In this document: in pieces, positions 21,606 to 57,341 of the stretch
Layout of the letters: every line of letters starts with the position of its first letter
How positions within the stretch are numbered: the stretch's first letter is position 1
NCBI GenBank assembly: GCA_964503235.1
Contig: CAZCZJ010000003.1
Span: forward strand, 1 to 61,368
DNA: 61,368 nucleotides
Reading direction: 5' to 3'
DNA from: an uncultured Dehalococcoidaceae bacterium
Lineage (GTDB): Bacteria; Chloroflexota; Dehalococcoidia; Dehalococcoidales; RBG-16-60-22
Translations under genes and position numbers: made by a program
The notes under the pieces: model-generated
Database searches by the model: none
Told to the model about the DNA's origin: nothing
Seen by the model: only the letters and a program-made list of their open reading frames with translations

Positions 21606-21638
21606 AAACCACAGCTGCAAATAAACAAGGAGAAACTA

Positions 21639-34870: not shown

Positions 34871-36112
34871 TTGAAGATAAAAATGTTGATAGATGAGTCT
34901 GGTGCCATAAAAATGGGCGATCTTATCACAGGAATAGATACAGGTGATGTATCAATAGAGGAAGTAAATGATACCGATACTTTCCGATCATTGAAAGATT
35001 CCTGGAATGAACTATTACAGCAATGCCCTGATAATGATATCTTTCTTACATGGGAATGGCTGTTCCACTGGTGGAAACACTATGGTGGCGATAAAAAGTT
35101 AAGGATCTTGTTAATCAAAGAAAGAGACAAAATTCTTGGTATTGCGCCCTTCATGCAATCGAGATATCGTATCGGCTGGTTCAGTGTTAACGTGCTGGAG
35201 AATATATGTTCCGAAAATTGCGACTACAGCGGTATCATTCTTACCGAAAAAAAACATGAGTCTATAGCCCTGCTCATGGATTATCTGGCAAGAATAATAA
35301 AAGATGAAAAATTAATCATAAGAATATACCACATTCCGGAAAACAGCGTTTTTCTTTCTATATTGCGTGAACAATATCCATCGCATTCAGATTCTCTTTT
35401 CCTGAATGAAAAGATTATAAGTTTCTGTCCCTATATCGAGCTTCCGGCGACCTTTGAGGAATACTTTAATGCCCTCAGTAAAAAGAAGCGCGCCAATGTA
35501 AGGCGCGCCAGGCGATCCCTGGAGCAAGACCATGTGGTCGAATTTAGAAATTATTCAGAAGATGACGATTTAAGGAGCCAACTCCAAGTTCTCTTTGAGT
35601 TTCATCAAAAGAGATGGCAGGAGAAAAATATTATCAGTAAATTTACAACGTCGGAAGCACGAGGCTTCTACATGGATGTATCTCAGGCTTTCATTAAAAA
35701 TAAATGGTTGAATTTTTCTTTCCTCAACGTAGACGGGAAAACAGTCTCAGCAGAATGGGGATTTGATTACAATAAAGAGTCCTACTATATGTCAGGTGCC
35801 TTTGACCTTCACTATTCAGGCTACAGCTTGGGGACTCTGCACCTGATGAAATTGGTAGAGAATGCAATCCAAAATGGCCAGAGAAAATTCGATTTTCTAA
35901 AAGGAGATCAAGCCTACAAGTCTCGCTGGGCAACCAGTAAAACAGCTAACATCAGGATAACCATAGCTAAAAGTGGACTTGTGGGCAGGTACCGGGCCAA
36001 ATTATTTCAGATGCTGATAAAATATCGCAATGTAAAAGAGCGCGGCTTCGGCGAAAATATTACCCTGCTTTTTAGGAAGCTGCGCTACCGAGGAAAGCCA
36101 AGCGACGATTAA
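34871..36112 (+). CDS. FemAB-superfamily / CelD-like GNAT-fold acyl(aminoacyl)transferase (Acetyltransf_6-like)
   Basis: FLTWEWLFHWWKHYG.., LSKKKRANVRRARRSLE, F..HQKRW.., FDFLKGDQAYKSRWAT. The start is uncertain: TTG 34871 in the track, with ATG 34883 or 34913 also possible. Confidence 0.65.
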   Translation: MKIKMLIDESGAIKMGDLITGIDTGDVSIEEVNDTDTFRSLKDSWNELLQQCPDNDIFLTWEWLFHWWKHYGGDKKLRILLIKERDKILGIAPFMQSRYRIGWFSVNVLENICSENCDYSGIILTEKKHESIALLMDYLARIIKDEKLIIRIYHIPENSVFLSILREQYPSHSDSLFLNEKIISFCPYIELPATFEEYFNALSKKKRANVRRARRSLEQDHVVEFRNYSEDDDLRSQLQVLFEFHQKRWQEKNIISKFTTSEARGFYMDVSQAFIKNKWLNFSFLNVDGKTVSAEWGFDYNKESYYMSGAFDLHYSGYSLGTLHLMKLVENAIQNGQRKFDFLKGDQAYKSRWATSKTANIRITIAKSGLVGRYRAKLFQMLIKYRNVKERGFGENITLLFRKLRYRGKPSDD

Positions 36113-36124
36113 AGATTTGATTCC

Positions 36125-36739
36125 TTAGAACGCGAACCTGTTCCTCAGTTTTTCGCCGAGTTTCCTGCCTTTGATATATAACCCGTTAAATTTTCTGAGC
36201 AAGGCAGTTTGAAGGCTTTGAGCCTTTACCTCTCCATACCTTTCATAGAAAACGATATCTCCAAGGGGTTTCCTCGCAAAGACTTTGTCCTTTACCTCAG
36301 CTCGATATCCTAACGGTGTATAAGCAATAACTCTGATTTCATCGGGGACTCCCAGAGCTTCCTTCACCTGCTTCTCGTCGAAAGCTCCTATCCAGCAGGT
36401 CCCCAGCCCCAAGTCAGTGGCGGCCAGTATCAGGTGTTCCAGGGAAATCCCGATGTCCAGCATATAGGTGTCCGTGCCGGGCTTGCGGCCGGATTCTTCA
36501 GGGTTGATACACGCTACGATGATGATCGGCGCCTCGCTGAGCCATTTATTTTCTTCCCCGGCAAGCTTTGCTTTAATGTCCTGGTCTGTGACGATAATGT
36601 ACTGCCAGCATTGACGATTTTTAGGTGAGGGCGCCAGCCGGGCCGCTTCCAGAACGGTTTTCAGGTACTCATCGGGTACCGGAACAGATTTATATTTTCT
36701 GATACTACGCCTTTTTTTTACTACTTCCATGAATTCCAT
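36125..36739 (-). CDS. nitroreductase-family flavoprotein
   Basis: RRSIRKYKSVPVPDEYLKTVLEAARLAPSPKNRQCWQYIIV. Confidence 0.8.
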   Translation of the reverse strand: MEFMEVVKKRRSIRKYKSVPVPDEYLKTVLEAARLAPSPKNRQCWQYIIVTDQDIKAKLAGEENKWLSEAPIIIVACINPEESGRKPGTDTYMLDIGISLEHLILAATDLGLGTCWIGAFDEKQVKEALGVPDEIRVIAYTPLGYRAEVKDKVFARKPLGDIVFYERYGEVKAQSLQTALLRKFNGLYIKGRKLGEKLRNRFAF

Positions 36740-36799
36740 AACAATCTCCTCCAGGTTTTGCTCGGAAGCCGGACTTGCGCCTCCGACAAATTGCCGCGC

Positions 36800-39196
36800 T
36801 CAACCGATGTGCCGGTACAGGAACGAGCCAGCTGCCATGCAAACCCACTTGGGCATTACATACGAGAATAACCGCATTGCCCGATATTTTACGCTGCTCT
36901 CGGTAACGTTGAAAAAGCCCCTTTTAACCGGAAAATAATAGTAAGGTGATGGAATCGCTTTTGCTCCCCACCTGCTTTTAAAGGTGCGGAGTCCTTCGTC
37001 TTCCGGTGAGCAACGCCCGAAATCAAAGTATTTATAATTATGGGCACAGGCATATTTGATTGCCTCCCAGATTATCAGGTGGTTGGGACGTTTCTTAAGG
37101 TATTTCTCGTCGGAAGCATTGTATTTATAATAAATGGTATCACCGTGGCCGAGAAAGACGACCCCGGCCACGGTCTTGCCTTCACATTCAGCTATCCCCA
37201 CGAAACCTTGGTTCTGCGAGATGACATTACGGAAAATACTTTTAAAGAAATTGCGCGGTTGCGGGAATACCCCGAGTTTCTTGCGCGTCGCCACATGCAA
37301 CTTGTAAAAAAGTTCTATATCTGCTTCGCTACTCGTCAGGCGAACGGTAACGTCGCGTTTCTCAGCCTGGTGGATACATCTTCGGACACTGTGGTGAAAC
37401 CTGGCGCTTAATGCCTTTAGGTCCGGCTCCAGTTCCAGCAGGTATCTGGTATAGTAGTCATAACTTATCAGTTTAAGCTTGGCTTCGGGAGATTCATTTT
37501 GCCATCCCCTGATTTCTACGTAAGAAGGGGCACCCTTACCCGTGTTAAGCTCGTTCTTGGTTTTGTTCAGTAGCAATTCAATATCCGCTTTGTCCCCGCC
37601 CAGGGGCCAGCAATAGTCAGAGAAGGGAAGGCAGACCAGCCTTCTCCCTGTGAATTTACACCGGATAAAGTAAAAGGGTATCGCCGCTCTCATCTGACCA
37701 TCCTCATTCTCGGTGATGTGGTATCGCGGCGAATAGTCATAAGTTTCTTTAATCACCCGGGCCCAGGCGGAAGTATGAAAAACTGTGCTGTTTTCCTGAC
37801 CGGTAACGAACTCGTCCCACATACTATCGGTTGTTGGATCGATAATCCTGACCGGGGTAGTCCTTTCGTCTTGGATAGGCTGAATCTGGCTGTACTTCCT
37901 GAAGGAAAGGAGGCTCCGTATCTTCTTTAGGAGTCTGCTATTTAATACTCCTGTCCTTTTCCAGAATCTAAGAAACAGGATGAATTCCACAATAAAGGGC
38001 AAAGGGTCATCGAGCGACGCAACCGCAAATTGTTTTTTCCCTTTAAGAGAATTCAGATATTTGCTCAAGCTCATCTTCCCTTTTAGAAGCTCGATAGCCA
38101 CGGTAGGAATATCCGTTATCAGGCGAATCCACTTAACTCCAACGCTATAACCATCCTGCTTCACCTTTTCTCCCAGAGTATCCAGATATGAAAGATAAGG
38201 CAGGTCTACCCCGGCGCCGATGGCTATGCTATGCCAACCCCAGGGCCTGGGATTTATTTCAATCAACTTGAATTGCCCATCTCTTGAATCCAGCATGAAT
38301 TCGACTTCGGATAGGCCGGAGTATCCCATTGCAGTAAGAATTTTCTTACTTGTTTCTACCAGCTGAGGTAAATATACGGTCTGAGCGTAAGTGGTAGCAT
38401 GGCCGAAATCCATGGGATGCTGTCTTGGACGCCGCACAGCTACATGAGCCAATAGCTTCCCGTCGCTGCATAAAGAACCGACCGAGAACAGGCCTTCGGT
38501 TCTCCCGGGTATTAATTCCTGTACCATGAGTGTTTGCGAAGGGTTGATTTCCGGAACCATTCTCGTATATTCGTCAATGAGCTGTTTTTTATTTTCAACA
38601 CGAATCGCCTTTTTCTGAGTCCTACTATAGAAAGGCTCTTTTATCGATGGTTTGAGAATGGCCGGAAATCTCACTTCCAGCTCTCTCACTTCCTCGATAC
38701 TGCGTGGATAACATGTGGCGGGTATGGCAATACCCACCTTCTCCGCCAGCTGGTAGGTCAGCATCTTATCATAAGCATATTTGACTATGTCCCATTCCGG
38801 AGTTGTCACCCTGTAATATTCTTCCAGTTGTTGCTTGTGTTGAGATAGGAAACAAACTGTTTCATCATCGTTGGGATATATTATCCATCCGTTAAGATTG
38901 TCTCTTATGGCTAGGTCAAGCAGGAACTTCAGGAAAATTGAATCTTCATTTACATAGGGACATTTTAGAAATTTCGTTTTATATCTTGAAAACCGGGCGA
39001 TACACTGCCTGTTACTAAGCACATAGACCGGGACACCCCGTTCACCAAGGCTCCTCACGATGCCGAGAGCTTGAAAAGTGCCTCCAATAATAACCGCCCC
39101 TACTTTTTCTTTCTGGTTGTCAGACATAGTTGACTTCTTTTTATTCAAATGGCTTTCTTTCATATTCTTCTTCACCGTATGATTCAATATCGCCAT
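36800..39196 (-). CDS. fusion protein: N-terminal ATP-grasp carboxylate-amine ligase and C-terminal FemAB/CelD-like transferase
   Basis: - N-terminal half: VIIGGTFQALGIVRSLGERGVPVYVL.., FPAILKPS.., LMVQELIPG.., SEVEFMLDSRDGQFKLIEINPRPWGW, the ATP-grasp pattern.
- C-terminal ~350 aa: FHTSAWARVIKETY.., FHHSVRRCIHQAEK.., LHVATRKKLGVFPQP.., YKYFDFGRCSPEDEGLRTFKSRWGA. Confidence 0.75.
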   Translation of the reverse strand: MAILNHTVKKNMKESHLNKKKSTMSDNQKEKVGAVIIGGTFQALGIVRSLGERGVPVYVLSNRQCIARFSRYKTKFLKCPYVNEDSIFLKFLLDLAIRDNLNGWIIYPNDDETVCFLSQHKQQLEEYYRVTTPEWDIVKYAYDKMLTYQLAEKVGIAIPATCYPRSIEEVRELEVRFPAILKPSIKEPFYSRTQKKAIRVENKKQLIDEYTRMVPEINPSQTLMVQELIPGRTEGLFSVGSLCSDGKLLAHVAVRRPRQHPMDFGHATTYAQTVYLPQLVETSKKILTAMGYSGLSEVEFMLDSRDGQFKLIEINPRPWGWHSIAIGAGVDLPYLSYLDTLGEKVKQDGYSVGVKWIRLITDIPTVAIELLKGKMSLSKYLNSLKGKKQFAVASLDDPLPFIVEFILFLRFWKRTGVLNSRLLKKIRSLLSFRKYSQIQPIQDERTTPVRIIDPTTDSMWDEFVTGQENSTVFHTSAWARVIKETYDYSPRYHITENEDGQMRAAIPFYFIRCKFTGRRLVCLPFSDYCWPLGGDKADIELLLNKTKNELNTGKGAPSYVEIRGWQNESPEAKLKLISYDYYTRYLLELEPDLKALSARFHHSVRRCIHQAEKRDVTVRLTSSEADIELFYKLHVATRKKLGVFPQPRNFFKSIFRNVISQNQGFVGIAECEGKTVAGVVFLGHGDTIYYKYNASDEKYLKKRPNHLIIWEAIKYACAHNYKYFDFGRCSPEDEGLRTFKSRWGAKAIPSPYYYFPVKRGFFNVTESSVKYRAMRLFSYVMPKWVCMAAGSFLYRHIG

Positions 39197-39226
39197 TCGT
39201 TATACATCCCCTCGGTTGTACACTCG

Positions 39227-39946
39227 TTAATTCGGGACGTCGTAAACCTCACTTCGGTCGCTTTTATCCTGGTGGTATTTCCTGAACGTAAAGAATAATA
39301 ATTTAAATCCCGGTGCATATCCAAACCGCTTAAATCCTGTCCTTTCGGCTCCTTTTATGGAGGCTATGTTGTCTTCTTCAATATAGCCTATTACCCATTT
39401 ATAGCCCCGCTCCTTGCAGATTCGCAAGCGGTCAATAATGATTGAAGGATGGAGTCGGTTACCCCGGAACTTCTCAAAAGTATAAGCTCCTGCCAGAATA
39501 ACCTCATCTTCCCGGAGAGTGTGGAACCATTTTCTAAACCCACCCTCTACTTTTTTATCATCCGTTGGGAATATAGTAAACGCTATGGTACATATCTCAT
39601 TGGTATCCACCGTCCTGGCAACATAGCAGTTTTGGTAGCCGTCTTCGAACATCCACTTACGAAATAGTACCTTTTCAACCATCTTCTTGCTTTCCGCTTT
39701 GGCTTTCTCCATTACCTCTTCCATGTCTTCTTTGGTGGCCAGCTTAAGAGTATATTTAATATTGGCTTCGATTTTTGGCAGTTCGAACTGCTCCAGATTC
39801 AAGGATAGACCAATCTGGTTAGACCGGCTGTATATATGCTGTTTCAACTTCTTCAGAAAAACTCTGAGGCCAGCGATTTTTAATAGCATGACTCCGTAGT
39901 ACATCAAGCCCAGGATTCTCTTTAATATTGCTTTTATTTTTTTCAT
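39227..39946 (-). CDS. GNAT-family N-acyltransferase (tentative)
   Basis: The C-terminal half has GNAT-like beta4-alpha3 features (AGAYTFEKFRGNRLHPSIIIDRL..GYIEEDNIASIKGAERTGFKRFG). This is a weak, motif-level call. Confidence 0.5.
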   Translation of the reverse strand: MKKIKAILKRILGLMYYGVMLLKIAGLRVFLKKLKQHIYSRSNQIGLSLNLEQFELPKIEANIKYTLKLATKEDMEEVMEKAKAESKKMVEKVLFRKWMFEDGYQNCYVARTVDTNEICTIAFTIFPTDDKKVEGGFRKWFHTLREDEVILAGAYTFEKFRGNRLHPSIIIDRLRICKERGYKWVIGYIEEDNIASIKGAERTGFKRFGYAPGFKLLFFTFRKYHQDKSDRSEVYDVPN

Positions 39947-39960
39947 CTTGGATGCATCCG

Positions 39961-41271
39961 TCAGCTCTTGAATTTGCTCTCCAGAATCCTCATTATAAAA
40001 TCCGTTATTGTTATGGAGTCGATATCTCCGGTTATGGATAACGCGCTTCTGGCCCCATCAGGCCAACGCCAGTACCTGAGCAAACAGGCATTCGATTGTT
40101 CGATTTTTTTTGAAAGAGCCTTTTCATCAGCCTGGTTGAACTTCTTTAAATCATCGAGATATATCCCGCACTCTTCCGGTTTTTTATTGAATTCTACAAT
40201 ATATCCTTCGCTCTGTAAAAACTTGACGGCTGTAGTAGAAGACCCTGCTGCTATGCCGATAACAGGTCGCACTGGACTTTCCAGGGAAAAATCTCTATCC
40301 CTGATGTACAGATAACTATCTAACCACCGGTCTGCAGATACGTTTACTTTACCGTTTTTTAATAATATTGTGGCTCGCTCGGAGCACTCCGCTTTTACTC
40401 CGTATCTGCCGTCACTCCGGTGTTCAATTTTGAAAGTGAACTTGTCTCTCTCCCGCCACCACTCGGCGATCTCTCTTAAAGTGGCTATCCAGACCGGCGG
40501 ATTTAATTCTCTGGCCTTTCGGAGTATTTTCACCAAACCGTTTTCACAGTGTATAATCCTTTCAGGATGTAACGAGAAATTAAACAGCTCACCGCTGTCA
40601 TATATCCGCTGCATGATTTCCACCCAGATATCACTGATTTTTTCCGAGTCGGTAATACCCATTCGTTCCACCAGTACTTCATCGTCTGGAATAGAAACCG
40701 GAATTTCTATCAACCCGTCTTCGAATCTAGGCAAAGATAAATACTTTTCGGCATCCAGCGGCTGGTAAAACTCCTTCAGGAGACTGAGGTTGTCCTTAAC
40801 ATACGTCGAGTAACTGTCGATATCGTTTACCGGCCACCACAAGGCGCGGCTGCTATCGTACAGGAAACCCAGGTCACTCAATATCGGCGTCGTGTGTTCA
40901 TTGGTCCGCAGAAAGGGAGCGCGAAAACCGACGAAAGGAACCTGGCATCGATTGAAGGTATGCATCGCTCTCTCAAAGTGATGGCCCATTTTTTCGTTAT
41001 CGACTACCTTATAGTCGATGTGTACGTATCCGTGTACCGCGAACTCGACTCCCCGATAGCTTAATTCCTTGATGTATCCCGGGTGTCTTGCCAGCACCAC
41101 TGCGGTAAGGGCAAATGTCGGGATACAGCCGGCGCTATGCGTTACATCGAAATATCTTTTAAGACAGCGTTCAAACTTCTTCGAGGAAATGCCGAAGCGG
41201 CACGCTACCGTAATAATCCTCGATATTAAATTTCTGAGTCCCCTTGATTTTGATAAAAAGCTTAATTTCAT
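39961..41271 (-). CDS. polysaccharide deacetylase-like protein (NodB-type N-terminal domain plus a C-terminal domain of unknown function)
   Basis: IPTFALTAVVLARHPGYIKELSYRGVEFAVHGYVHIDY and FVGFRAPFLR resemble the carbohydrate-esterase-4 pattern. The canonical TFDDG motif is not obvious. Confidence 0.6.
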   Translation of the reverse strand: MKLSFLSKSRGLRNLISRIITVACRFGISSKKFERCLKRYFDVTHSAGCIPTFALTAVVLARHPGYIKELSYRGVEFAVHGYVHIDYKVVDNEKMGHHFERAMHTFNRCQVPFVGFRAPFLRTNEHTTPILSDLGFLYDSSRALWWPVNDIDSYSTYVKDNLSLLKEFYQPLDAEKYLSLPRFEDGLIEIPVSIPDDEVLVERMGITDSEKISDIWVEIMQRIYDSGELFNFSLHPERIIHCENGLVKILRKARELNPPVWIATLREIAEWWRERDKFTFKIEHRSDGRYGVKAECSERATILLKNGKVNVSADRWLDSYLYIRDRDFSLESPVRPVIGIAAGSSTTAVKFLQSEGYIVEFNKKPEECGIYLDDLKKFNQADEKALSKKIEQSNACLLRYWRWPDGARSALSITGDIDSITITDFIMRILESKFKS

Positions 41272-41374
41272 CTCGGCCGCGGCATCACCACCAAGTCAGC
41301 AAAAAGCTGGAGTTCGGCTCTCTGAGAGCCAATATTCCCTATACTAACTCTTGTGCCATTACCTCCTTAAATAT

Positions 41375-45223: not shown

Positions 45224-45226
45224 GTA

Positions 45227-47176: not shown

Positions 47177-47189
47177 TTTTATCCTGAAA

Positions 47190-48533
47190 TCACATAAAAT
47201 CCGTTTTTACTTTCGAGATTACATAGTGCCGCTTACCCGCCTCGGTGGGTTCGATATTATCTACCTGTATTACGGATATGTTCATCATACCGCCGAAAGA
47301 TGGCTGCAATTCATTACGGATATCTTCTAACAGAGCCGGAGCAACTCTTTGCCGACATAATAGACGTACCTCTAAATGTTCTCTATCTGGTTGATAAATC
47401 TGGAATTGCTGTACCCCATATTGATATTTGGATATAATTATATCATCGACGATTACTGAGTGAACAATCTGGCCGTCAGGTCTTACAAGAAGATCATTAT
47501 TCCGTCCGACTATCTCTTGGAGGACAGGCATACCCCGCCCGCAGGAACAGCCCCCGGTTTCATAAATCCCCACGTCGCCGTTTTTATATCTGATAAATGG
47601 CATGGCGTACTGGTTCAAGGCCGTGACGACCACCTCTCCCATCTTTCCATCATCGACGACCTGCCCACTTTCTACCAGTTCAAGGTAGCGCTCTTCGTTC
47701 ACGTGGAGACCTCCTTGGGGACACTGGTAAGCATAACTGAATATCTCCAGGGAGCTGTAATGGTCGGCCACCGGTGCGTGAAAAATCTCCTCGAAAAGAC
47801 CCCGCATTGAAGGCGTTATTTTCTCAGCCGTGGTTTCTATGAGCCTGGGTTTAATAGACGTGATATGGCGCTCTTTAAGATAATGAGCGAATACGGATAG
47901 TGCCTGCGGATAGACTCTGATTATTTCTGGTTGCCACCTGATAAGCATTTCGGTAAACGCTTGCATTTTGTTTTCGGTCATCGTCCGGGCATTCAAGTAC
48001 CGGTATCGCTTGATTTTGGCAGCCAGGCGGTCTTTCCATTTCCACTCCGGATAATCCTGTAAGGAGCCTGTAATCCAGGCCATCTTATTTCCCCGTCTTA
48101 CCCCGTACCAGCCGCGGCACCGGGCTTCAACGGCATAGCTCCAGTACGCCGCGGAGCTATCCATGATGAACCGCATCGGTTCTCCGGTAGAACCGGATGT
48201 TTTCCCCTCGAAGACACCTCCTCGATAAACGGTTGAAACGAGGTCTCCACGATGGTTTTTCACATCAGTCCTGGTTAGGAAGGGGAGAGCCTGAAAGTCT
48301 TTCAAGCTTTTAATGTCCTGCGGGTGAATACCTTCACGCTGGTAGCGCTGACGGTAAAACGGCACGTATTCATAGGCGTAGCTCACCAGCCGCTGGATTT
48401 TCTTTAATTGTACCTCTTCCAACTCGCCCCTTGTAAGCCATTGGGAACTTTCCAGCTCCTTCAGACAACGCCGGATTTCCTGGTGCCCCGGTAACAGGTA
48501 CTTCCTTAAAAACTGGTAAACACTCGAATACAT
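47190..48533 (-). CDS. CapK/PaaK-like adenylate-forming ligase (phenylacetate-CoA ligase family), copy 1
   Basis: 447 aa. Canonical AMP motif GKTSGSTGEPMRF, plus the family features YRQRYQREGIHP..LPFLTR and C-x-CGRG. Confidence 0.8.
   Translation of the reverse strand: MYSSVYQFLRKYLLPGHQEIRRCLKELESSQWLTRGELEEVQLKKIQRLVSYAYEYVPFYRQRYQREGIHPQDIKSLKDFQALPFLTRTDVKNHRGDLVSTVYRGGVFEGKTSGSTGEPMRFIMDSSAAYWSYAVEARCRGWYGVRRGNKMAWITGSLQDYPEWKWKDRLAAKIKRYRYLNARTMTENKMQAFTEMLIRWQPEIIRVYPQALSVFAHYLKERHITSIKPRLIETTAEKITPSMRGLFEEIFHAPVADHYSSLEIFSYAYQCPQGGLHVNEERYLELVESGQVVDDGKMGEVVVTALNQYAMPFIRYKNGDVGIYETGGCSCGRGMPVLQEIVGRNNDLLVRPDGQIVHSVIVDDIIISKYQYGVQQFQIYQPDREHLEVRLLCRQRVAPALLEDIRNELQPSFGGMMNISVIQVDNIEPTEAGKRHYVISKVKTDFM
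48273..48403. repeat. 131-nt patch ~95% identical to 49690-49820, inside paralog 1
   Basis: Hand alignment shows 7 mismatches in 131 nt, including a 48-nt perfect run (CTGAAAGTCTTTCAAGCTTTTAATGTCCTGCGGGTGAATACCTTCACG). Confidence 0.85.
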
Positions 48534-48609
48534 AATCCCTATTTACGTGTCGTCTATTTCACGTGCCTTATTCTCTTTGCCTGATATTCTATAGGTACAG
48601 CAAGTGTAA

Positions 48610-49950
48610 CTAATAGCCATCCGGCTTAACTTCCGAAATAATGAATCGATGCTTGCCCGCTGCTGTCAATTCAATGTGGTCTACCATCTTTACAGATATT
48701 TGCATTTTCTTACCGAAATATGGCTGTAATTCATTCCTGATATTTGTTTCCAGCTTGATTGCATTTGGTTTCTGCTTGCATAACAATCGAACCTCGAGGT
48801 GTTGCTGATCTGGTTGATAAATCTGGTATCGGTATACTTCCGGTATTTTCTCTACGACGTCATCAACACTGGTCCAATGAATAACCTTTCCATCAGGGTT
48901 CACAAGTAAATCGCAGTCTCGTCCTACCACCTCACGGAGAACCGGCATACCCCGACCGCACCTACAGTCCGTGGGATCGATAATCCCCACATCATTGTTC
49001 TTATACCTGATAAAGGGCATAGCATACTGGTTTAATGGTGTGACAACAATATCTCCCATCTGGCCGGGAGGGACAACTTGGCCGCCGGATACCAGTTCGA
49101 GATAGCGGTTTTCTATTACATGTAGGCTCCCCTCAGGACACTGATAAGCAATAATGCCTGATTCCCAAGAACCATAACCGTCGGCTATCGTTGCTTGAAA
49201 AACGTGCTCGAATAACTGCCGTTGGTGATGTGTCATTTTCTCAGCACAGACCTCGATTAGCTTAGGTCTGATAGACGGCAATTTATGTTCCTTAAGATAT
49301 CTGGCGAAAATGTAGAGAGCTGTCGGATATGCCCTAAACATATCCGGCTTCCATCTTGATAACATCTCGGCGAAGTCCCGCATTTTCAAATCGTCCATTG
49401 TACGGCTGTTTAAATACCGTCGTCGACGTATTTGAGCACGGAGACGTGAACGCCAGTTCCAGCTCGGAAAATCTTTTTGATTGCCCCAGACCCAAGCTAT
49501 CTTGTCCCCCGGTGTGATCCCATACCAGCCGCGGCACCGGGTTTCAACCGCAGAGCATTCCATTAATGAAGACTTGTCCATTATAAAACGCATCGGATGC
49601 CCGATGGAACCACCAGTAGTATACTCGTAAGTACTGCCTTGATATACCGAAGATACAAGTAATTTCAGGTTATTATTCACATCATCCCGGGTTAGGAAGG
49701 GGAGAGACTGAAAGTCTTTCAAGCTTTTAATGTCCTGCGGGTGAATACCTTCACGTTGATAGCGCTGCCGGTAAAACGGCACGTTTTCATAAGCATAGCT
49801 CACCAGCCGCTGGATTTTCTCGAGCTGTATTTCTTCCAATTCGTATCTTGTCAGCCACTCTGTTTTTTCCAACTCCTCCATGCAGCGCCGGATTTCCTTA
49901 TGCCCCGGTAGCAGGTACTTCTTTGATAACTCGTAAAGATAGGAATACAT
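48610..49950 (-). CDS. CapK/PaaK-like adenylate-forming ligase, copy 2 (divergent AMP motif)
   Basis: 446 aa, collinear with copy 1. The N-terminal ~95 aa are nearly identical. The AMP/P-loop motif reads TTGGSIGHPMRF rather than TSGSTGEPMRF. Confidence 0.8.
   Translation of the reverse strand: MYSYLYELSKKYLLPGHKEIRRCMEELEKTEWLTRYELEEIQLEKIQRLVSYAYENVPFYRQRYQREGIHPQDIKSLKDFQSLPFLTRDDVNNNLKLLVSSVYQGSTYEYTTGGSIGHPMRFIMDKSSLMECSAVETRCRGWYGITPGDKIAWVWGNQKDFPSWNWRSRLRAQIRRRRYLNSRTMDDLKMRDFAEMLSRWKPDMFRAYPTALYIFARYLKEHKLPSIRPKLIEVCAEKMTHHQRQLFEHVFQATIADGYGSWESGIIAYQCPEGSLHVIENRYLELVSGGQVVPPGQMGDIVVTPLNQYAMPFIRYKNNDVGIIDPTDCRCGRGMPVLREVVGRDCDLLVNPDGKVIHWTSVDDVVEKIPEVYRYQIYQPDQQHLEVRLLCKQKPNAIKLETNIRNELQPYFGKKMQISVKMVDHIELTAAGKHRFIISEVKPDGY
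49690..49820. repeat. 131-nt patch ~95% identical to 48273-48403, inside paralog 2
   Basis: See 48273-48403. Confidence 0.85.
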
Positions 49951-49993
49951 ATTACCTTCTCTCCTGGCTATAGTATTTAACGATTAAGTTTAA

Positions 49994-50809
49994 TTATTGA
50001 AGAAAATAGTACCGGTTATAATACCCCGCTCTCCGCCACGGGTCAATAAATAATCTAATAAACCATCTCTGCCTTAGCAATATGAAATTCATTTTCGCTA
50101 ATATGGATAGACTGAGGGAAAGAAGGCCCCTTGAGAGGCTGTTCTTTTGTAACAAGGATGGAAGTTTATCGTACAGGTTATAAAGTAAGGAGGGAAACAT
50201 ACTATAGTTATTATAAATCAGCTTAAATCCGCTGGTCTGTAGTAATTTGCTATATTCATCGTCGGTACGGAAAACGCACGGATTGCTACTATCTCCATAC
50301 CTTCGCTGCTTCAATGCGACTGAATCTCTCGTTATCAATAACCCATCTTTGTTTAAATGATGCCTTAATTGTTTTAGCAGATCTGAAACCGAATCATCAT
50401 CCATATACATCAGGCAACCACCGATATGGATTATATCAAAGTTTCGATTTTCTAAATAAGAATAGTCGGTTATATCTTGACACAAGAACGTTACGTTGCT
50501 AATCCCTTTATCACTGGCAAACTTATTTGCATACTTTATGAATGTCGGCGAAAAATCAATAGCGACAACGCTTTTACATTTTTTCGCGAAATCTATTGCA
50601 TAACTTCCGATATTGCACCCCAGGTCCAGAACAGACATAGATTGATCAAACTTTACCAGACGGAATAAGTGTGCTATCTGCATCTTGTAACGGTAGTTTA
50701 AGCGTACTTGGTCGTCGGACATGGTAGTGCCTATTGCATAATAATTGGAATGGATGTTCTTTGCCTTCTTTTCCCAGAATTGCTGCATATCATTACAACT
50801 AGGTTCCAA
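49994..50809 (-). CDS. class I SAM-dependent methyltransferase
   Basis: Motif I VLDLGCNIGSY, and post-I VVAIDFS. Confidence 0.8.
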   Translation of the reverse strand: MEPSCNDMQQFWEKKAKNIHSNYYAIGTTMSDDQVRLNYRYKMQIAHLFRLVKFDQSMSVLDLGCNIGSYAIDFAKKCKSVVAIDFSPTFIKYANKFASDKGISNVTFLCQDITDYSYLENRNFDIIHIGGCLMYMDDDSVSDLLKQLRHHLNKDGLLITRDSVALKQRRYGDSSNPCVFRTDDEYSKLLQTSGFKLIYNNYSMFPSLLYNLYDKLPSLLQKNSLSRGLLSLSLSILAKMNFILLRQRWFIRLFIDPWRRAGYYNRYYFLQ

Positions 50810-50877
50810 TTTAGCCTCTCCAACAACATCTGCTACAACGTAATTAAAAAAGAATCTGATATTTTATATATTTTGAA

Positions 50878-51624
50878 TTAAGGTTCCCATTCGAAATATA
50901 CGGGTTCAAAATATTGTCCTTCTTTAACAAACGCAGCTTGGTATCCCTCATTGACGTTCAAATCGCAAATTGACCACCGGGCGGCAGCTTCTGAATCTCC
51001 TTCAATACTTACCAATCTAGCCGGCTCATCCCGCGCCAGCGATACATCGAATTTATCCAGCGGGTAAGACAGGCCGTCTCCGGTAGCTTTAATAAAGGCC
51101 TCCTTGCGCGTCCAGCAGTTGAAAAACGCCTGCCTCTTCCCACTCTCAGGCAGTATGCGGAAAACCTCGTTCTCTCCCGGAGAGAAGAAACTCATAGCGA
51201 TTTGATCCATCTCAGGCATGTCTCGTATCCGCTCGATGTCAATACCTATTTCACGGTTCCTGATAAAAGCGTATATTGCCAGCCCCTCCGAGTGGGATAA
51301 ATTAAAATGAATCTTTTTCCGGTTAAAATCATCGGCGAGTGCCGGCTTGTCATTCTTCCCATAAGAAAATAGCACTCTTTCTGGTTCAACCCCAAGATAA
51401 CAACCCAGTAGTATTCTCAATATCCCCCGTCGTACGATAAACCGGTTTCTCTCCTTTTCAAAATGAAATCGCCCGGCCCTTTTTCTCTCACCGGCAACCA
51501 GCAGACTGTGATACGGCGATATCGTTCTATCCAGAAAAGCACTCCAGATATGGACTTCGTCTCTGGCTAATTCAAGGTCTGTCGATTTGACTATATTTAA
51601 TTGACGGTTCATCTTTATATCCAC
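50878..51624 (-). CDS. Sfp-type 4'-phosphopantetheinyl transferase
   Basis: FNLSHSEGLAIYAF, IGIDIERI, WTRKEAFIKATG. Confidence 0.85.
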   Translation of the reverse strand: MDIKMNRQLNIVKSTDLELARDEVHIWSAFLDRTISPYHSLLVAGERKRAGRFHFEKERNRFIVRRGILRILLGCYLGVEPERVLFSYGKNDKPALADDFNRKKIHFNLSHSEGLAIYAFIRNREIGIDIERIRDMPEMDQIAMSFFSPGENEVFRILPESGKRQAFFNCWTRKEAFIKATGDGLSYPLDKFDVSLARDEPARLVSIEGDSEAAARWSICDLNVNEGYQAAFVKEGQYFEPVYFEWEP

Positions 51625-51795
51625 TGAAGGGGAAATCCCAACACCTTTAGCATAAAATCATAAGGTTAGAAAAAAGTTAGGTTTGGGTTATAAGACGGAT
51701 AAAATGTAGATGAAGTGAGCCATGGGGCTTGAATCCATTCTCGCCATTCAAATACAAATTCATAGAAATATTCTTGTTAAAATGATTTATGTCAA

Positions 51796-52818
51796 TCATA
51801 CATCTAAAATAACCTTTATTCTTCGAAGAAGGTGATAACTCCCTGAGACGCTGGCCTTAAAGAACAAAATATTCTCACCTACTGCTATCCGCTTAAGTTT
51901 ATATAGAAATGAATTTTCATCGTTGAAGCCCTTTTCAACCGTAACCGCCGATTCGTAACCATAGCTCTTCACCTTAGAAATTACCCTGTCATTGTACGAA
52001 CCAGCCGGGTAGCAAAAATGATCTACCTTACGTCCAATGTTTCTCTCGATATCAAGTTTCGAGTTATATACTTCATCTTCCAGTTCCTTATCTGTGACAA
52101 GATTAGTACAGTTAGGATGCCTTCTGGTATGGCTGCCAATTTCAAGAATGTTGGGATCTAATCCCTTGATTTGCTCCCAATCGGCCATAATAAATTCTTT
52201 GGGAATATTAATTAAATTGTAATTGCCGAATTGCTTAAGATGTTCCAGCCTTTCTTTATCCGGGAGTGTACGCAGTTTCGCTTTAATGTCCTTCATTGCA
52301 TGCCCAATTGATATCCTATCACCCAGTATGTAATTGATTACTTCTCCTTTGAAGATAAACTTAAAATCCTTAGTGTTTTGATTTCTAATCACCGTTTCTA
52401 CAAAATCCGTCCACAATAGCTCATTTGTCCCGACTAAATCAGATACCAGATAGATACAGCCCTTGGCACCATAATCTTTCATTATTGGATAGGCATTTTC
52501 TACAACATTTCTAAACCCGTCATCGAAAGTGAGAACCACAAATTTATCCAGTCTGTTTTTATTTTTTATGGCATCTAATAAGTCTGTCATACTCACGAAG
52601 ATATATCCCTGGTTCTTGAGATACTCTAAATGTTTTCTGAAAAGCGACTTAGGAATGTGTCTCTCGTCGAAACCTCTCAGTAGGTCAAAGGTATCGTCAC
52701 ATATGCCGTGATACAAGAGAATAATCACCTTGTGTCGGTTTAATGTCCGGCATAGGGCATTTATCCCCAAGATGTCCAACGCCAATAGTAGCAATATACG
52801 CAAATACAGCCTAATCAT
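51796..52818 (-). CDS. polysaccharide deacetylase (NodB/CE4)
   Basis: N-terminal TM, VVLTFDDGFRNV, GCIYLV, HTRRHPN. Confidence 0.85.
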   Translation of the reverse strand: MIRLYLRILLLLALDILGINALCRTLNRHKVIILLYHGICDDTFDLLRGFDERHIPKSLFRKHLEYLKNQGYIFVSMTDLLDAIKNKNRLDKFVVLTFDDGFRNVVENAYPIMKDYGAKGCIYLVSDLVGTNELLWTDFVETVIRNQNTKDFKFIFKGEVINYILGDRISIGHAMKDIKAKLRTLPDKERLEHLKQFGNYNLINIPKEFIMADWEQIKGLDPNILEIGSHTRRHPNCTNLVTDKELEDEVYNSKLDIERNIGRKVDHFCYPAGSYNDRVISKVKSYGYESAVTVEKGFNDENSFLYKLKRIAVGENILFFKASVSGSYHLLRRIKVILDV

Positions 52819-53650: not shown

Positions 53651-53794
53651 ATGAATAAAACGGTCTTGGTTACCGGTGCCGCCGGACTCATCGGTTCCCA
53701 TCTATCAGAAAAGTTGGTCCAGCTCAATTATCAGGTTATCGGGCTGGATAATTACGATGATTTTTATTCTCCGGCTTATAAGATGGTATGAAGG
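53651..53794 (+). pseudogene. N-terminal 47-codon fragment of an NAD-dependent epimerase/dehydratase
   Basis: [46 protein letters not shown] parallels the N-terminus of 9798-10742 (MNKAVVTGGAGFIGSHIAEELSKRGYQVTIIDN). It stops where the next GT gene starts. Confidence 0.6.
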
Positions 53795-54792
53795 TTTTAG
53801 CAGTTACCAATATGTACCCGACTCCCCAGGCACCGGCCTTCGGGCCTTTTATCAAAGCCCAGATAGATTCCGAAAGGAAAGAGGGTATCGATATTGATGT
53901 GCTTTTTATCAATGGTGATAAAAGCAGGTGGAACTATTTATGGGGCTTTTTTAGATTCTGGGCACGGCTCCTTACCAGGCGTTATGACCTGATTCACGCC
54001 CATTACGTATTTATGGGAATCCTGGCCAGGTTTCAGTTTCTGTATCCAGTCGTTTTGACGCATACCGGGGCCCAGGTATTTAGAGGCTGGCAGGCTAAGC
54101 CAAGCCGTATCATCTCTCGAATGTGCGACAGGGTGATCGTCCGCACCCTTGAGATGAAAGAAAAGATGGGTATAGAAAAGGCTGAAATCATACCTGCCGG
54201 TGTTGACTTCGATCTGTTTAAACCCATGCCGCCAGAAGAATGCCGCCGGCAGCTGGGTCTATCCCAGGATAAAAAGCTGGTTCTCTGGGCCGGAGCGTAT
54301 GCCAGACCGATAAAAAGGTACGATATCGTCGAGAAGGCGATAGCTATTTTACAAAAAAATATGTCCGGGGTAGAGCTGGTATTAGCCACCGGCCACCCGC
54401 TCGATGTAGTGCCGCTATATATGAACGCCTGCGATGTATTACTACTGGTCTCTAACGCCGAAGGTTCACCGAACGTTATCAAGGAGTCCATGGCCTGCAA
54501 CCTGCCTATCGTGTCCGTGCCGGTAGGAGATGTACCCGAGATAATCGGTGATACCGAAGGTTGTTATCTATGCACGCAAGATCCTGAGGATGTTGCTGAA
54601 AAACTCCAAATGGCTCTCCTGTGGGGAAAAAGGACCGAAGGCCGCGATAAAATAAAACACCTTGAAATAGGTGCCGTTAGCCGGAGGATTATCGCAGTGT
54701 ATGAGGGGCTGCTAAAGGAAAAACAGGAACATATGCTATCAAGATTATGGTCATGGTGCCGTAACGGAGAGAAGGTAACTAAGGGGCAATGA
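53788..54792 (+). CDS. GT4-family glycosyltransferase
   Basis: [26 protein letters not shown] (E-x7-E). Confidence 0.85.
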
Positions 54793-55946: not shown

Positions 55947-55948
55947 AT

Positions 55949-57316: not shown

Positions 57317-57341
57317 TATGCTAGGAATGAAGTGACAAATA

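Follow-up and report, generated by a model that had tools for sequence, protein, structure and literature searches.

A carrier-protein assembly line with a cysteine thioesterase-like domain as a candidate acyl-decoration module of a Wzx/Wzy-type glycan locus

Introduction

A carrier-protein assembly line encoded among genes for glycan assembly raises the question of whether its product is attached to the glycan or released as a free metabolite. Such a line is present in the stretch of 61,368 nt analysed here (the window, to whose positions all coordinates refer), and we found no published description of a line of this kind in a glycan locus. At a probability of about 0.5, our reading is that the block is an accessory acyl-decoration module of a Wzx/Wzy-type glycan locus and not a stand-alone natural-product cluster.

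Results

The ORF check confirmed the layout given in the original prediction, with 11 minus-strand ORFs exactly where listed at 36125-52818, separated according to their coordinates by gaps of 3-171 nt, and one further plus-strand ORF at 34871-36112, giving a total of 12 (Table 1). HMM searches against Pfam and NCBIfam supported the domains assigned to the 12 proteins, the GNAT call falling below the cut-off. As had also been claimed, these searches returned no call within the block for condensation, KR, DH or ER domains, or for an exporter or a regulator. One edge of the block is marked by a 46-aa epimerase gene fragment and a 970-bp non-coding gap.

Table 1. Coordinates of the block genes and of the neighbouring glycan genes
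Feature	Position	Strand	Basis
Glycan precursor genes (five)	18356..23431	+	Pfam, NCBIfam
Second FemAB/CelD-like (Acetyltransf_6) protein, convergent with the operon	34871..36112	+	Pfam, E 1.4e-28
FMN nitroreductase-family oxidoreductase	36125..36739	-	Pfam Nitroreductase, E 1.5e-32
ATP-grasp ligase (~1-420) :: FemAB-family transferase (~430-798)	36800..39196	-	Pfam ATPgrasp_Ter, FemAB, Acetyltransf_6
GNAT-like acyltransferase	39227..39946	-	Pfam Acetyltransf_3, E 0.007, below cut-off
Cytoplasmic CE4/DUF2334-like amidohydrolase, long form	39961..41271	-	Weak Polysacc_deac_1/DUF2334 (Pfam, NCBIfam)
Single type I PKS module, KS-AT(malonyl)-T-TE-like	41375..45223	-	Pfam
TE-like alpha/beta-hydrolase domain, Cys nucleophile	41378..42196	-	Alignments
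Stand-alone NRPS loading A-T didomain	45227..47176	-	Pfam AMP-binding, AMP-binding_C, PP-binding
PaaK/CapK-like adenylate-forming ligase 2, paralogue of ligase 1	47190..48533	-	NCBIfam
PaaK/CapK-like adenylate-forming ligase 1	48610..49950	-	NCBIfam DVU_1553, PaaK, F390, all below cut-off
SAM-dependent methyltransferase	49994..50809	-	Weak NodS and N-terminal alpha-N-methyltransferase (Methyltransf_PK) similarity
Sfp/HetI-type 4'-phosphopantetheinyl transferase (PPTase)	50878..51624	-	Pfam ACPS, AASDHPPT_N
CE4 polysaccharide deacetylase, PgaB/IcaB-like	51796..52818	-	Pfam Polysacc_deac_1, E 1.3e-22
Divergent glycan-assembly operon	53788..60575	+	Pfam; gene calls in L173

The claim that almost all flanking genes serve glycan assembly stood for a phosphoglycosyl transferase, WbpB/D/E-type genes, UppP, three GT4s, a Wzy_C protein and Wzx. 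It did not stand for Wzz, no Wzz/PCP domain being detected in the flanks by HMM searches, and the region that separates the sugar genes from the block also contains non-glycan genes, which encode NTP_transf_5, an ABC-2 exporter, an S24-like peptidase and a 1316-aa beta-helix/cadherin surface protein. No HMM matched the 540-aa protein at 23617. The precursor set comprises a UDP-sugar 6-dehydrogenase, a phosphoglycosyl transferase, a WbpB-like 3-dehydrogenase, a WbpD-like hexapeptide N-acetyltransferase and a WbpE-like aminotransferase, which together predict a 3-amino sugar. Of the WbpA/B/E/D-type genes proposed earlier, the B, D and E types held as family-level calls, and the "WbpA" gene at 18356 scored best as a UDP-glucose 6-dehydrogenase (TuaD model, 483 bits). 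For these reasons the 2,3-diacetamido uronic acid of the original prediction is only one possible sugar. A TviB/TviC-like pair lies at 7957-10742. The divergent operon beyond the block encodes, in order, two GT4s, a Wzy_C-family polymerase or ligase, a third GT4 and a Wzx flippase.

The core of the block is a short thiotemplate line. Its PPTase, which matches the HetI model with 206 bits (below the cut-off of 370) and whose position next to the PKS is conserved in the related loci L081, L083, L088, L089, L090 and L172, would prime both carrier domains. The A-T didomain scores 341 bits with TIGR01733 (cut-off 317), and manual motif mapping of its A domain gave a specificity code of approximately D-V-R-H-L-A-L-L-A-K, predicting a Ser-like pocket in which position 239 is Arg. 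The window shares the A4 motif FDVSLRDIF and the A5 motif NLYGPSETTLAK with L083, L087, L088, L098 and L172. Only 3 nt separate the end of the A-T gene from the PKS gene, whose module contains no reductive domains. Its KS carries the Cys (TGCS), HGTGT and GH motifs, its AT has the GHSIGE and HAFH motifs of the malonyl type, and full-length homologues (~1280 aa, 50-65% identity) are numerous.

The module ends in an unusual TE-like domain, whose nucleophile is a Cys because the motif reads GGFCMGG. Alignments showed that this domain does not have the canonical GxH catalytic His, in place of which LPVYPxxMLxEPF is found, while the Ser-type relative L085 retains GNH. Both the Cys and the loss of the His are conserved among relatives: GxH is absent from the tail in 75/89 of the Cys type and present in 10/12 of the Ser type. 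The AlphaFold model shows a TE topology at moderate confidence only (pLDDT 68), and Foldseek placed AB3403, also a Cys TE, on top, followed by the Pks13 TE among others. The Pks13 TE hands its product to a sugar. In L086 the NRPS that comes after a Cys-TE module begins with A-T and lacks a C domain, an order that may hint at amide formation via the Cys domain.

Two CE4-like enzymes accompany the line. The first, at 51796, gives partial PgaB/IcaB matches, has the LTFDDG and HTRRH motifs, and possesses an N-terminal hydrophobic segment, so that it probably works outside the cytoplasm, on polymer. The cytoplasmic one matches PDB 3rxz (E 3e-10), contains HGxxH, RxP and HP motifs, and appears to carry its DxD motif at the C-terminus, which would correspond to a circular permutation; it is a candidate sugar N-deacetylase with 659 homologues found. 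Long-form orthologues occur in L081, L088, L171 and L172, and a distant short form (309-382 aa) adjoins the PKS in L083, L087, L089 and L090. The gene beside the PKS is CE4-like, in long or short form, in 8/8 close loci, which fits the proposed N-acyl swap on the sugar.

The remaining genes encode putative tailoring enzymes and a nitroreductase. In L088 and L172, an orthologue of the methyltransferase, a candidate N-methylase of the starter amine or of a sugar amine, immediately precedes the A-T gene. For ligase 1, the top solved structure is a phenylacetate-CoA ligase (PDB, E 6e-28) and the precomputed Pfam call is CapK_C; ligase 2 had no Pfam-A match at E 0.01. A ligase 1 homologue is absent from all other compared loci, and paired CapK-like ligases were present in this window alone among these loci, so the pair is accessory. 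The weak GNAT call is supported by homologues in L081, where the N-terminal part of a GNAT::FemAB fusion is 69% identical, and in L171, where the gene lies between deacetylase-like and ATP-grasp genes. The ATP-grasp::FemAB fusion matches TIGR03019 (pepcterm_femAB) with 133 bits, below the cut-off of 260, and its FemAB part matches FemX and FmhB in the PDB. In L088, L090 and L171 the ATP-grasp half has a gene of its own, and fusions tie the tailoring enzymes to one another, with GNAT::FemAB in L081, ATP-grasp::FemAB in the window and FMO::ATP-grasp in L160. The nitroreductase, with weak BluB, RutE and SagB-type matches, is kept with the block in L081 (73% identity) and L172 (64%).

The association of this line with glycan genes recurs elsewhere. 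In L083, L087, L088, L098 and L172, homologous pairs of A-T and KS-AT-T-TE(Cys) genes occur amid WbpB/D/E, phosphoglycosyl-transferase, GT4, Wzy and Wzx genes; in L081, L089 and L090 their neighbours are FemAB, deacetylase, DegT or GT genes. The five precursor genes of the window have counterparts of 77-94% identity in L088, where they border a related PKS block. The A-T and PKS genes of L083 and L087 are situated on one strand between phosphoglycosyl-transferase/WbpB/WbpD and GT4/Wzy/Wzx genes, indicating likely co-transcription with the glycan genes, and only a short gap separates WbpE from the PPTase gene that comes after it in L083. Minimal versions consist of a stand-alone T-TE(Cys) and a PPTase, in a WbpBDE/phosphoglycosyl-transferase/CE4 locus (L131) or beside a GT2 gene (L150). 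The statistics cover loci of 15 kb or longer. Deacetylase, FemAB or ATP-grasp homologues were found in 17/30 Cys-TE loci versus 0/58 Ser-TE or TE-less PKS loci (Fisher test, p 2e-10), and at least two glycan genes in 9/30 versus 0/58 (p 2.5e-5), p-values that overstate confidence because the loci come from two collections and are not phylogenetically independent; the tblastn panel used detects only relatives of the window's own glycan genes. The proposed link between thiotemplate line and glycan therefore recurs in related loci and is absent from the Ser-TE and TE-less ones; it does not extend to the Cys-TE lines of L086, L096 and L142, which sit in ordinary NRPS/PKS clusters, or to several others that lack KS-AT. 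None of these lines has a glycan gene within 10 kb, indicating that the domain is not restricted to glycan contexts.

A parallel with exosortase loci had been drawn in the original prediction, and it proved real at the family level: TIGR03019 (FemAB), TIGR03006 (deacetylase) and TIGR03098 (ligase) gave sub-threshold matches in the block, which falls below the cut-offs of the XrtA-associated families, and in L160 an F-A-T-TE(Cys) protein directly adjoins an exosortase gene.

Discussion

Beyond domain identification, we infer all steps of the following mechanism. The A domain, with its Ser-like pocket and Arg239, would load a small alpha-amino acid, and a single malonyl extension by the KS would give a 4-amino-3-oxoacyl thioester that passes to the active-site Cys of the TE-like domain. 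Since this domain has no water-activating His, the chain would be released by an amine rather than by water. The accepting amine could belong to an amino sugar of a repeat unit carried on a nucleotide or on undecaprenyl. Either the cytoplasmic CE4-like enzyme encoded next to the PKS would expose this amine, or WbpB and WbpE together would make it; such a scheme would follow the deacetylate-then-reacylate logic of NodB/NodA and LpxC/LpxD. The free amine would be capped by the methyltransferase in the window, and by a formyltransferase domain, a starter C domain or a hexapeptide acetyltransferase in other loci. The GNAT, the ATP-grasp::FemAB fusion, the second FemAB and the two CapK-like ligases may add or cap amino-acid or amide substituents, and the membrane-anchored CE4 enzyme may edit the exported polymer.

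An amino acid, one malonyl unit and a terminal TE are a classic route to tetramate or pyrrolinone rings, and this architecture would suit a free diffusible molecule (a pyrrolidine-2,4-dione or methoxypyrrolinone, a 4-amino-3-oxo acid or a decarboxylated aminoketone) encoded in a glycan locus on account of co-regulated biofilm or envelope traits. PKSs of ~50% identity in ordinary NRPS/PKS clusters (L085, with an O-methyltransferase, and L086), the methyltransferase and oxidoreductase of the block, and the ABC-2 exporter ~8 kb away agree with this possibility, which we nevertheless consider unlikely. The His-less Cys domain defines the glycan-linked clade, the L085 relative having a normal Ser/His TE; a lactam ring could not close once the starter amine is capped, for which the window, L081, L087, L088, L089 and L090 each have a candidate function; none of the compared loci keeps a small-molecule exporter alongside the block; and the one-strand interleaving with glycan genes in L083 and L087 also argues against a free product. 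Somewhat more doubtful is a division into two independent sub-modules, in which the deacetylase, GNAT, ATP-grasp and FemAB decorate the glycan with amino acids and the PPTase, methyltransferase, A-T and PKS make another product or supply a different acceptor (lipid, surface protein). L171 carries the first of these sets without any PKS, so the two halves may act independently; L083 has the PKS with neither FemAB nor ATP-grasp, the 21 kb covered for L172 show none, and block composition is mosaic across the compared loci. However, the constant CE4-like neighbour of the PKS and the co-occurrence of FemAB or ATP-grasp with Cys-TE far above background connect the two sets.

Another candidate acceptor is an envelope molecule other than the glycan, such as a peptidoglycan precursor; the FemAB-like proteins would then act on lipid II, as for Gram-positive cross-bridges. 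The FemAB domain does match structures of FemX and of lipid II:glycine glycyltransferase, and UppP is nearby; yet FemX is matched weakly (E 1e-4 to 1e-3), the EPS-associated TIGR03019 gives the best family match, the window contains no mur or PBP genes, and it is WbpB/D/E, phosphoglycosyl-transferase, GT4 and Wzx genes that consistently surround the block, which makes this acceptor improbable. That the block came together by chance, or is a horizontally acquired cluster in decay that no longer has a function, seems hardly credible: the epimerase fragment and non-coding gap at its edge and a GC content of 0.40 to 0.55 across it would fit decay, but the 12 ORFs are intact with catalytic motifs present, an identical form of the arrangement exists on independent contigs, and divergent versions recur across many loci.

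For the acyl-decoration reading, the recurrence of this pairing in many uncultured bacteria suggests an undescribed route by which tailor-made acyl groups are placed onto sugars.

The block encodes a PKS module, an NRPS didomain and putative amide-forming enzymes

The block consists of 11 minus-strand ORFs between 52818 and 36125, separated by 3-171 nt according to the ORF coordinates, and of one convergent plus-strand ORF. The gene coordinates of the original prediction match the ORF list exactly, and its domain assignments are supported by the Pfam and NCBIfam scans from which the block domains were called, if weakly for the GNAT and the second deacetylase-like protein. In transcription order, the genes code for a CE4 polysaccharide deacetylase, an Sfp/HetI-type PPTase, a class I SAM methyltransferase, two PaaK/F390/CapK-like adenylate-forming ligases, an NRPS A-T didomain and a KS-AT-T-TE protein (the PKS), followed by a weakly matched CE4/DUF2334-like protein, a weakly matched GNAT, an ATP-grasp::FemAB fusion and a nitroreductase, and then by the convergent gene, which encodes a second FemAB/Acetyltransf_6 protein. 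The identity of the two ligases is backed by the top solved structure and a precomputed CapK_C call. A FemABX domain is present in the fusion protein (FemAB 42.3 bits for a Pfam cut-off of 24; Acetyltransf_6 73 bits), and the convergent protein reaches 100 bits with Acetyltransf_6, above the Pfam cut-off. The methyltransferase gives weak NodS matches (NodS model 39 bits, cut-off 300). The family matches of the nitroreductase include malonic-semialdehyde reductase, so that 3-oxo reduction is one possibility for this enzyme. The same scans detected no C, KR, DH or ER domain, no exporter and no regulator within the block. The absence of a dedicated regulator, as originally predicted, also stands after a tblastn search, which found no match in the window to the small MerR/HTH_17 regulator lying beside related blocks in four other loci (L081, L088, L171 and L172). 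The positions of the features discussed here are collected below.

Positions of the features in the window and in the compared loci
Feature	Sequence	Positions	Strand
Two tandem double-Usp genes and second ABC-2 permease/ATPase pair	window	851-4796	-
TviB-like and TviC-like genes	window	7957-10742
Histidine kinase, OmpR-type response regulator, RR-GGDEF-HD_5 protein	window	13479-18258
Same regulators	L171	17672-21320
Same regulators	L172	12609-17817
UDP-sugar 6-dehydrogenase	window	18356-19735	+
540-aa protein	window	23617
NTP_transf_5, ABC-2 permease, ABC ATPase, S24-like peptidase	window	25400-29041	-
1316-aa predicted surface protein	window	30374-34324	-
Second FemAB/Acetyltransf_6 protein	window	34871-36112	+
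ATP-grasp::FemAB fusion	window	36800-39196	-
Long-form CE4/DUF2334-like protein	window	39961-41271	-
PKS (KS-AT-T-TE)	window	41375-45223	-
TE-like domain of the PKS	window	41378-42196	-
A-T didomain	window	45227-47176	-
Anchored CE4 deacetylase	window	51796-52818	-
Non-coding gap (970 bp)	window	52819-53787
46-aa epimerase fragment	window	53651-53791	+
Wzy_C family protein	window	55892-57316	+
Short CE4-like form	L083	13907-14836
Short CE4-like form	L087	14424-15353
Short CE4-like form	L089	9143-10102
PKS and NRPS opening with A-T	L086	5363-19943
Stand-alone T-TE(Cys)	L131	9707-10831
Two T-TE proteins in tandem	L150	9671-12268
Exosortase and F-A-T-TE(Cys)	L160	4286-10810

The PKS has the organization of a type I modular extension module, with all its Pfam domains far above cut-off. 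According to its sequence motifs, the KS is of the condensing type (TGCS with its Cys, HGTGT, GH) and the AT of the malonyl type (GHSIGE, HAFH), and the carrier domain reads LGGNSL. The A-T protein is an NRPS adenylation and carrier didomain: its A domain scores 341.2 bits with TIGR01733 (cut-off 317.4), and the protein carries FDVS (Asp235), NGKIDR (Lys517) and LGGTSI. The carrier serines are present in both proteins. As a 13-residue insertion made automated Stachelhaus extraction unreliable, the specificity pocket was mapped by hand from motifs, giving approximately D-V-R-H-L-A-L-L-A-K in GrsA numbering. This pocket coincides with no familiar substrate code. It resembles the Ser code DVWHLSLIDK, from which it differs by an Arg at 239 and smaller residues at 301 and 331, and a small amino acid, polar or acidic, may be the substrate. 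The window A domain has its A4 and A5 motifs in common with L083, L087, L088, L098 and L172. The pocket reads Ser-like in the C-A-T protein of L081 and Gly-like in the F-A-T protein of L089.

Candidates for capping the amine of the starter recur in these loci: the window, L088 and L172 have a NodS/NTM1-like methyltransferase, L089, L090 and L160 have a formyltransferase domain, L081 has a starter C domain and L087 has an extra hexapeptide transferase. A capped starter amine would prevent self-cyclization to a tetramate and would favor intermolecular release.

The TE-like domain has a cysteine nucleophile and no GxH histidine

In the alignment of the C-terminal 270-285 residues of the PKSs, every glycan-linked PKS carries G-[FY]-C-[ML]-G-G; the window motif is GGFCMGG, with Cys as the nucleophile. 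At the catalytic GxH site, all seven glycan-linked sequences read LPV[YF]PxxMLxEPF, and Ser-type relatives have GxH at the same site (VPGNHITM in L085). The sole invariant His of the glycan-linked TEs in this alignment is that of the HxxGGN oxyanion loop, and an acid (Glu/Asp) is present after beta6. The TE-like domain does not have the canonical type I thioesterase triad, since its nucleophile is a Cys and the His is absent from the GxH position. Considering all fetched loci, GxH is absent from the last 60 residues in 75 of the 89 Cys-type domains and present in 10 of the 12 Ser-type ones. An AlphaFold model of moderate confidence (pLDDT 68, pTM 0.68), which served solely for topology and fold neighbors, adopts the TE topology and places the VYP segment after the last core strand, at the usual site of the His loop.

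The best match of the domain, both by Foldseek and by sequence, is the AB3403 NRPS, whose TE likewise uses a Cys, and other TEs including Pks13 come next. Against NCBIfam, the domain matched no family beyond Pks13, EntF and PcaDC. Apart from the lactam and lactone formers, AB3403 is the only other TE of characterized structure whose nucleophile is a Cys, and the catalytic His of ObiF1 is His1284 (PMC11298585); this residue is absent at the equivalent position in the window TE. Like the NRPS TEs AB3403 of A. baumannii, SulM, ObiF1 and MacB, the window domain combines the type I TE fold with a nucleophilic Cys. It differs from them in that beta-lactam and beta-lactone rings are the products of SulM and ObiF1, and none of the four is linked to glycan genes.

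We infer that the TE-like domain holds the chain as a thioester, which is released by an amine and not by activated water. This would fit the role of Cys alpha/beta-hydrolases such as SyrC and CmaE, which are acyl shuttles. It would also fit the organization of L086, where the NRPS after a KS-AT-T-TE(Cys, no His) protein opens with A-T in the absence of a condensation domain, as if the Cys domain formed the next amide bond.

A CE4-like protein is the constant partner of the PKS

BLAST and HMM comparisons identified the 309-382-aa proteins adjoining the PKS in L083, L087, L089 and L090 (which has two copies) as distant relatives of the 436-aa CE4/DUF2334-like protein of the window. Close orthologues of this long form are encoded in L081, L088, L171 and L172, and the long form belongs to a large family (659 matches). 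Since the short and long forms are related, all eight close loci have a CE4-like gene together with the PKS. The motifs HGxxH, RxP and HP are common to the two forms. LTHDVDT occurs near the N-terminus of the short form, while a similar SITGDIDS, preceded by a W-x-WP motif resembling that of the short form, lies at the C-terminus of the long form; the element W-x-WP...T-x-D-[VI]-D is thus N-terminal in the short proteins (309-382 aa) and C-terminal in the long ones (about 436-448 aa). The short-form HMM aligns with residues about 398-432 of the long form at 2.5 bits. At the level of motifs, this suggests that the long form is a circular permutant of the short one.

Cys-TE modules recur with glycan genes in other loci

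Numerous proteins of about 1280 aa have the same KS-AT-T-TE architecture, and we inspected the neighborhoods of the closest ones.

Gene content around the closest relatives of the PKS
Locus	Genes	Remark
L083	Wzc/Wza, phosphoglycosyl transferase, WbpB/D/E, PPTase, unknown, A-T, PKS, 309-aa protein, DegT, GT4s, Wzy, Wzx	single strand
L087	GNVR protein, phosphoglycosyl transferase, WbpB, FemAB, hexapeptide transferase, A-T, PKS, hexapeptide transferase, 309-aa protein, Wzx, Wzy, GT4s
L088	CE4-like, PPTase, MT, A-T, PKS, ATP-grasp	adjoining sugar genes 77-94% identical to those of the window
L081	PPTase, C-A-T, PKS, CE4-like, GNAT::FemAB, methyltransferases, nitroreductase
L089	PPTase, F-A-T, PKS, 319-aa protein, FemAB, DegT, FemAB, formyltransferase, sulfotransferase, GT4
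L090	FemAB, type II TE, PPTase, F-A-T, KS-AT-KR-T, PKS, ATP-grasp, PS decarboxylase, GT4, GT2
L172	PKS, A-T, MT, PPTase, then CE4-like and nitroreductase	regulators and sugar genes alongside, as in the window

Relatives of about 50% identity are mixed: the L085 protein is the terminal module of a normal NRPS, with a Ser/His TE and an O-methyltransferase alongside, and L086 is a conventional NRPS/PKS line. The Cys-type domain is also found apart from a PKS. Stand-alone carrier and Cys-TE didomain proteins of 362-395 aa are encoded in L131, beside a PPTase in a locus with CE4, DegT, WbpD, WbpB, WbpE-type, phosphoglycosyl-transferase and GT4 genes, and in L150, near a free-standing adenylating enzyme, a TPP enzyme and a GT2. 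In L160, an exosortase (EpsH) gene lies directly upstream of the gene of a 1854-aa F-A-T-TE(Cys) protein, whose A domain is interrupted by a luciferase-like monooxygenase; this locus also has FemAB and GT4 genes, and an FMO::ATP-grasp fusion downstream. Conversely, L171 has CE4-like, GNAT, ATP-grasp, PS decarboxylase, formyltransferase and FemAB genes without a PKS. The predicted fusions, namely GNAT::FemAB in L081, ATP-grasp::FemAB in the window and FMO::ATP-grasp in L160, tie the tailoring enzymes into a single putative pathway.

To the Cys-TE set, a metagenome scan with the TE alignment added 80 loci; as a background, 80 generic PKS loci were taken from a genome-collection scan with the whole PKS, whose hits mostly covered only KS-AT-T. 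Loci of at least 15 kb were compared by tblastn against a panel of window proteins and a few from related loci. A CE4-like, FemAB or ATP-grasp homologue was detected in 17/30 Cys-TE loci and in 0/58 Ser-TE or TE-less PKS loci (Fisher p 2e-10), at least two glycan genes in 9/30 versus 0/58 (p 2.5e-5) and at least one in 12/30 versus 3/58 (p 9e-5), values that are to be read knowing that the two sets come from different collections, that the loci are phylogenetically non-independent and that the panel detects only relatives of the window genes.

The block is surrounded by glycan assembly genes

Upstream of the block, the plus strand carries genes for a UDP-sugar 6-dehydrogenase, a phosphoglycosyl transferase and WbpB-, WbpD- and WbpE-type proteins, next to which lie the genes of a 540-aa protein, NTP_transf_5, an ABC-2 exporter, an S24-like peptidase, UppP and a 1316-aa beta-helix/cadherin surface protein. 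Downstream, divergent genes encode GT4, GT4, Wzy_C, GT4 and Wzx. Among the domains found in the window are Bac_transf, Polysacc_synt and Wzy_C. No Wzz/GNVR (PCP) domain was found there, the 540-aa protein giving no match at all, and the Wzz label of the original prediction has to be dropped. The gene taken for WbpA scores best as a UDP-glucose 6-dehydrogenase (TuaD model, 483 bits), and a TviB-like UDP-GlcNAc 6-dehydrogenase with a TviC-like 4-epimerase, encoded ~8-10 kb upstream of it, is a likelier source of HexNAc uronic acid. The WbpB-, WbpD- and WbpE-like genes have family-level matches only; the best match of the WbpB-like gene is an archaeal UDP-GlcNAc 3-dehydrogenase, below cut-off, and no WbpI-type 2-epimerase was called in the window. 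As the presumed WbpA is UDP-glucose dehydrogenase-like, a 3-amino sugar is a fair prediction, and the 2,3-diacetamido uronic acid proposed earlier becomes only a possibility.

The histidine kinase, OmpR-type response regulator and RR-GGDEF-HD_5 genes of the window are syntenic with those of a complete Dehalococcoidales genome (L171) and of a MAG (L172). In all three cases the trio adjoins these glycan and decoration genes, which suggests c-di-GMP/two-component control. The synteny also makes it probable that the window, a metagenomic contig, derives from a related lineage of the Chloroflexota.

Several other features of the region were noted. The "Wzy" gene belongs to the Wzy_C (PF04932) family, which also holds WaaL ligases and O-oligosaccharyltransferases, so that a ligase or protein-glycosylation role is possible for its product. 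The NTP_transf_5, ABC-2 permease, ABC ATPase and S24-like peptidase genes are inserted between the sugar genes and UppP; PqqD and ScmC adjoin the PKS block in L081 and L088, L081 having a radical-SAM/SPASM gene as well, and these observations together hint at an associated peptide-maturation or export system. The 1316-aa protein, encoded between UppP and the block, has a DUF1565 beta-helix (pectate-lyase-like) and Big_9/cadherin-like domains and could be a glycan-binding, glycan-cutting or glycosylated envelope protein. At the other edge of the block, a 46-aa ORF corresponds to the Rossmann fragment at the N-terminus of an NAD-dependent sugar epimerase (GAAGLIGSH; PF01370 is called in L173), with its 3' end just within the first GT4 gene; together with the 970-bp non-coding gap, this looks like a recombination scar. 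The left end of the window holds a second ABC-2 permease/ATPase pair and two double-Usp genes in tandem, which have no relation to the finding.

A proposed mechanism and its relation to known systems

We propose, with a probability of about 0.5, that the block carries out a carrier-protein-dependent acylation of a glycan. The A domain would load the starter, which would undergo one malonyl extension, and the chain would be parked on the Cys of the TE-like domain. It would then be released by aminolysis, the nucleophile being a sugar amine that either the cytoplasmic CE4-like enzyme unmasks or WbpB/WbpE produce. The GNAT, the ATP-grasp::FemAB fusion, the second FemAB protein and the CapK-like ligases would perform further amide chemistry, and the anchored CE4 enzyme would edit the polymer last, in the extracytoplasmic space. 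The central idea of the original prediction, that the block would be coupled to a glycan and would not be a cluster for a free metabolite, now has comparative genomics behind it. More tentatively, and with the odds rather against it, the His-less Cys TE-fold domain could be an N-acyltransferase that transfers the products of assembly lines to amino sugars which belong to Wzx/Wzy repeat units and have been de-N-acetylated, representing a widespread undescribed thiotemplate-to-glycan class; it is equally tentative that, in such a class, the domain would be fused to a type I PKS module, an NRPS module or a lone carrier domain.

Several known systems share parts of this scheme. Nod factor synthesis uses the deacetylase NodB, the N-acyltransferase NodA, the carrier protein NodF with the KS NodE, and the N-methyltransferase NodS. 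Its logic is that of the scheme proposed here: a CE4 enzyme frees a GlcNAc-type amine, a dedicated carrier and KS build a special acyl chain that is transferred to this amine, and a methyltransferase can modify the amine. The window has CE4-superfamily enzymes and a carrier protein with a KS. No NodA homologue was found in it with Pfam or NCBIfam, so that transfer would fall to the Cys TE-like domain; moreover, the window chain would be amino-acid-primed and come from a type I PKS module, and its proposed acceptor is a Wzx/Wzy repeat unit instead of a chito-oligosaccharide. The resemblance is one of logic, not of membership. Lipid A synthesis by LpxC/LpxD and the perosamine tetronate pathway of V. 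cholerae O1 (RfbK-O, in an O-antigen locus) likewise expose or make a sugar amine that is then N-acylated from an acyl-carrier-protein thioester, but they use a discrete ACP with LpxD-type or other acyltransferases and have no type I PKS, NRPS A domain or TE-like transferase. In the D-alanylation of teichoic acids by DltABCD, a cell-wall glycopolymer is decorated with an amino acid that an adenylation enzyme has loaded on a carrier protein. The window A domain reaches 222 and 215 bits with the DltA models, below their cut-offs of 476 and 560, and neither DltB (MBOAT) nor DltD was called in the window, which places the block outside the Dlt family; in addition, it differs by the PKS extension, the TE-like domain and a probably cytoplasmic chemistry.

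The accessory genes of XrtA/PEP-CTERM exopolysaccharide loci encode the same kinds of proteins and provide the best family matches for the window FemAB domain and the second deacetylase; moreover, the relative L160 has its exosortase gene adjoining F-A-T-TE(Cys). A polysaccharide deacetylase is among the proteins of EpsH loci (Haft et al. 2006, PMC1569441). The scores remain far below the cut-offs (TIGR03019, FemAB, 133 versus 260 bits; TIGR03006, deacetylase, 35 versus 276; TIGR03098, ligase, 174 versus 592), and Exosortase_EpsH had no match among the scanned window ORFs of at least 150 aa. Membership in the XrtA/exosortase system was rejected on these two grounds and on the family matches of the TE; that system also has an acyl-CoA ligase (TIGR03098) and an ACP in the place taken in the window by the NRPS A-T didomain and the type I PKS module. 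Finally, the TE of mycobacterial Pks13 is an acyltransferase with trehalose as its acceptor. Among the NCBIfam matches of the window PKS, Pks13 ranks second, and it is one of the top structural neighbors of the window TE. Both have a terminal PKS module with a TE-fold domain, which in the window would likewise off-load to a sugar instead of water. Pks13 differs by its Ser-Asp-His triad, by forming an ester with a free disaccharide, by condensing two fatty acids and by its location outside a Wzx/Wzy locus.

A non-exhaustive search of the full-text literature returned no published account of a Wzx/Wzy locus that houses a type I PKS/NRPS line. The closest publication deals with Collimonas carenaemin and describes two separate loci of unrelated architecture (PMC8313283).

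Implications

The decorations of surface polysaccharides are usually thought to be simple (acetyl, pyruvyl, amino acids), and substituents are seldom predictable from sequence. Genome-mining tools would mis-file loci such as this one as orphan NRPS-PKS clusters; a simple recognition rule would be the Cys/no-His motif with an adjoining CE4-like gene. If the proposal is true, GxCxGG and VYPxxMLxEP would be a sequence marker for such glycans, and a transferase role would be assigned to an unexplained class of Cys-type TEs, of which AB3403 is the only structurally characterized relative. It would link assembly-line natural products with glycan assembly, provide the first polyketide/non-ribosomal unit built directly into a bacterial surface polysaccharide, and imply that the sugars of uncultured Chloroflexota-like and further environmental bacteria bear new keto-amino-acyl substituents.
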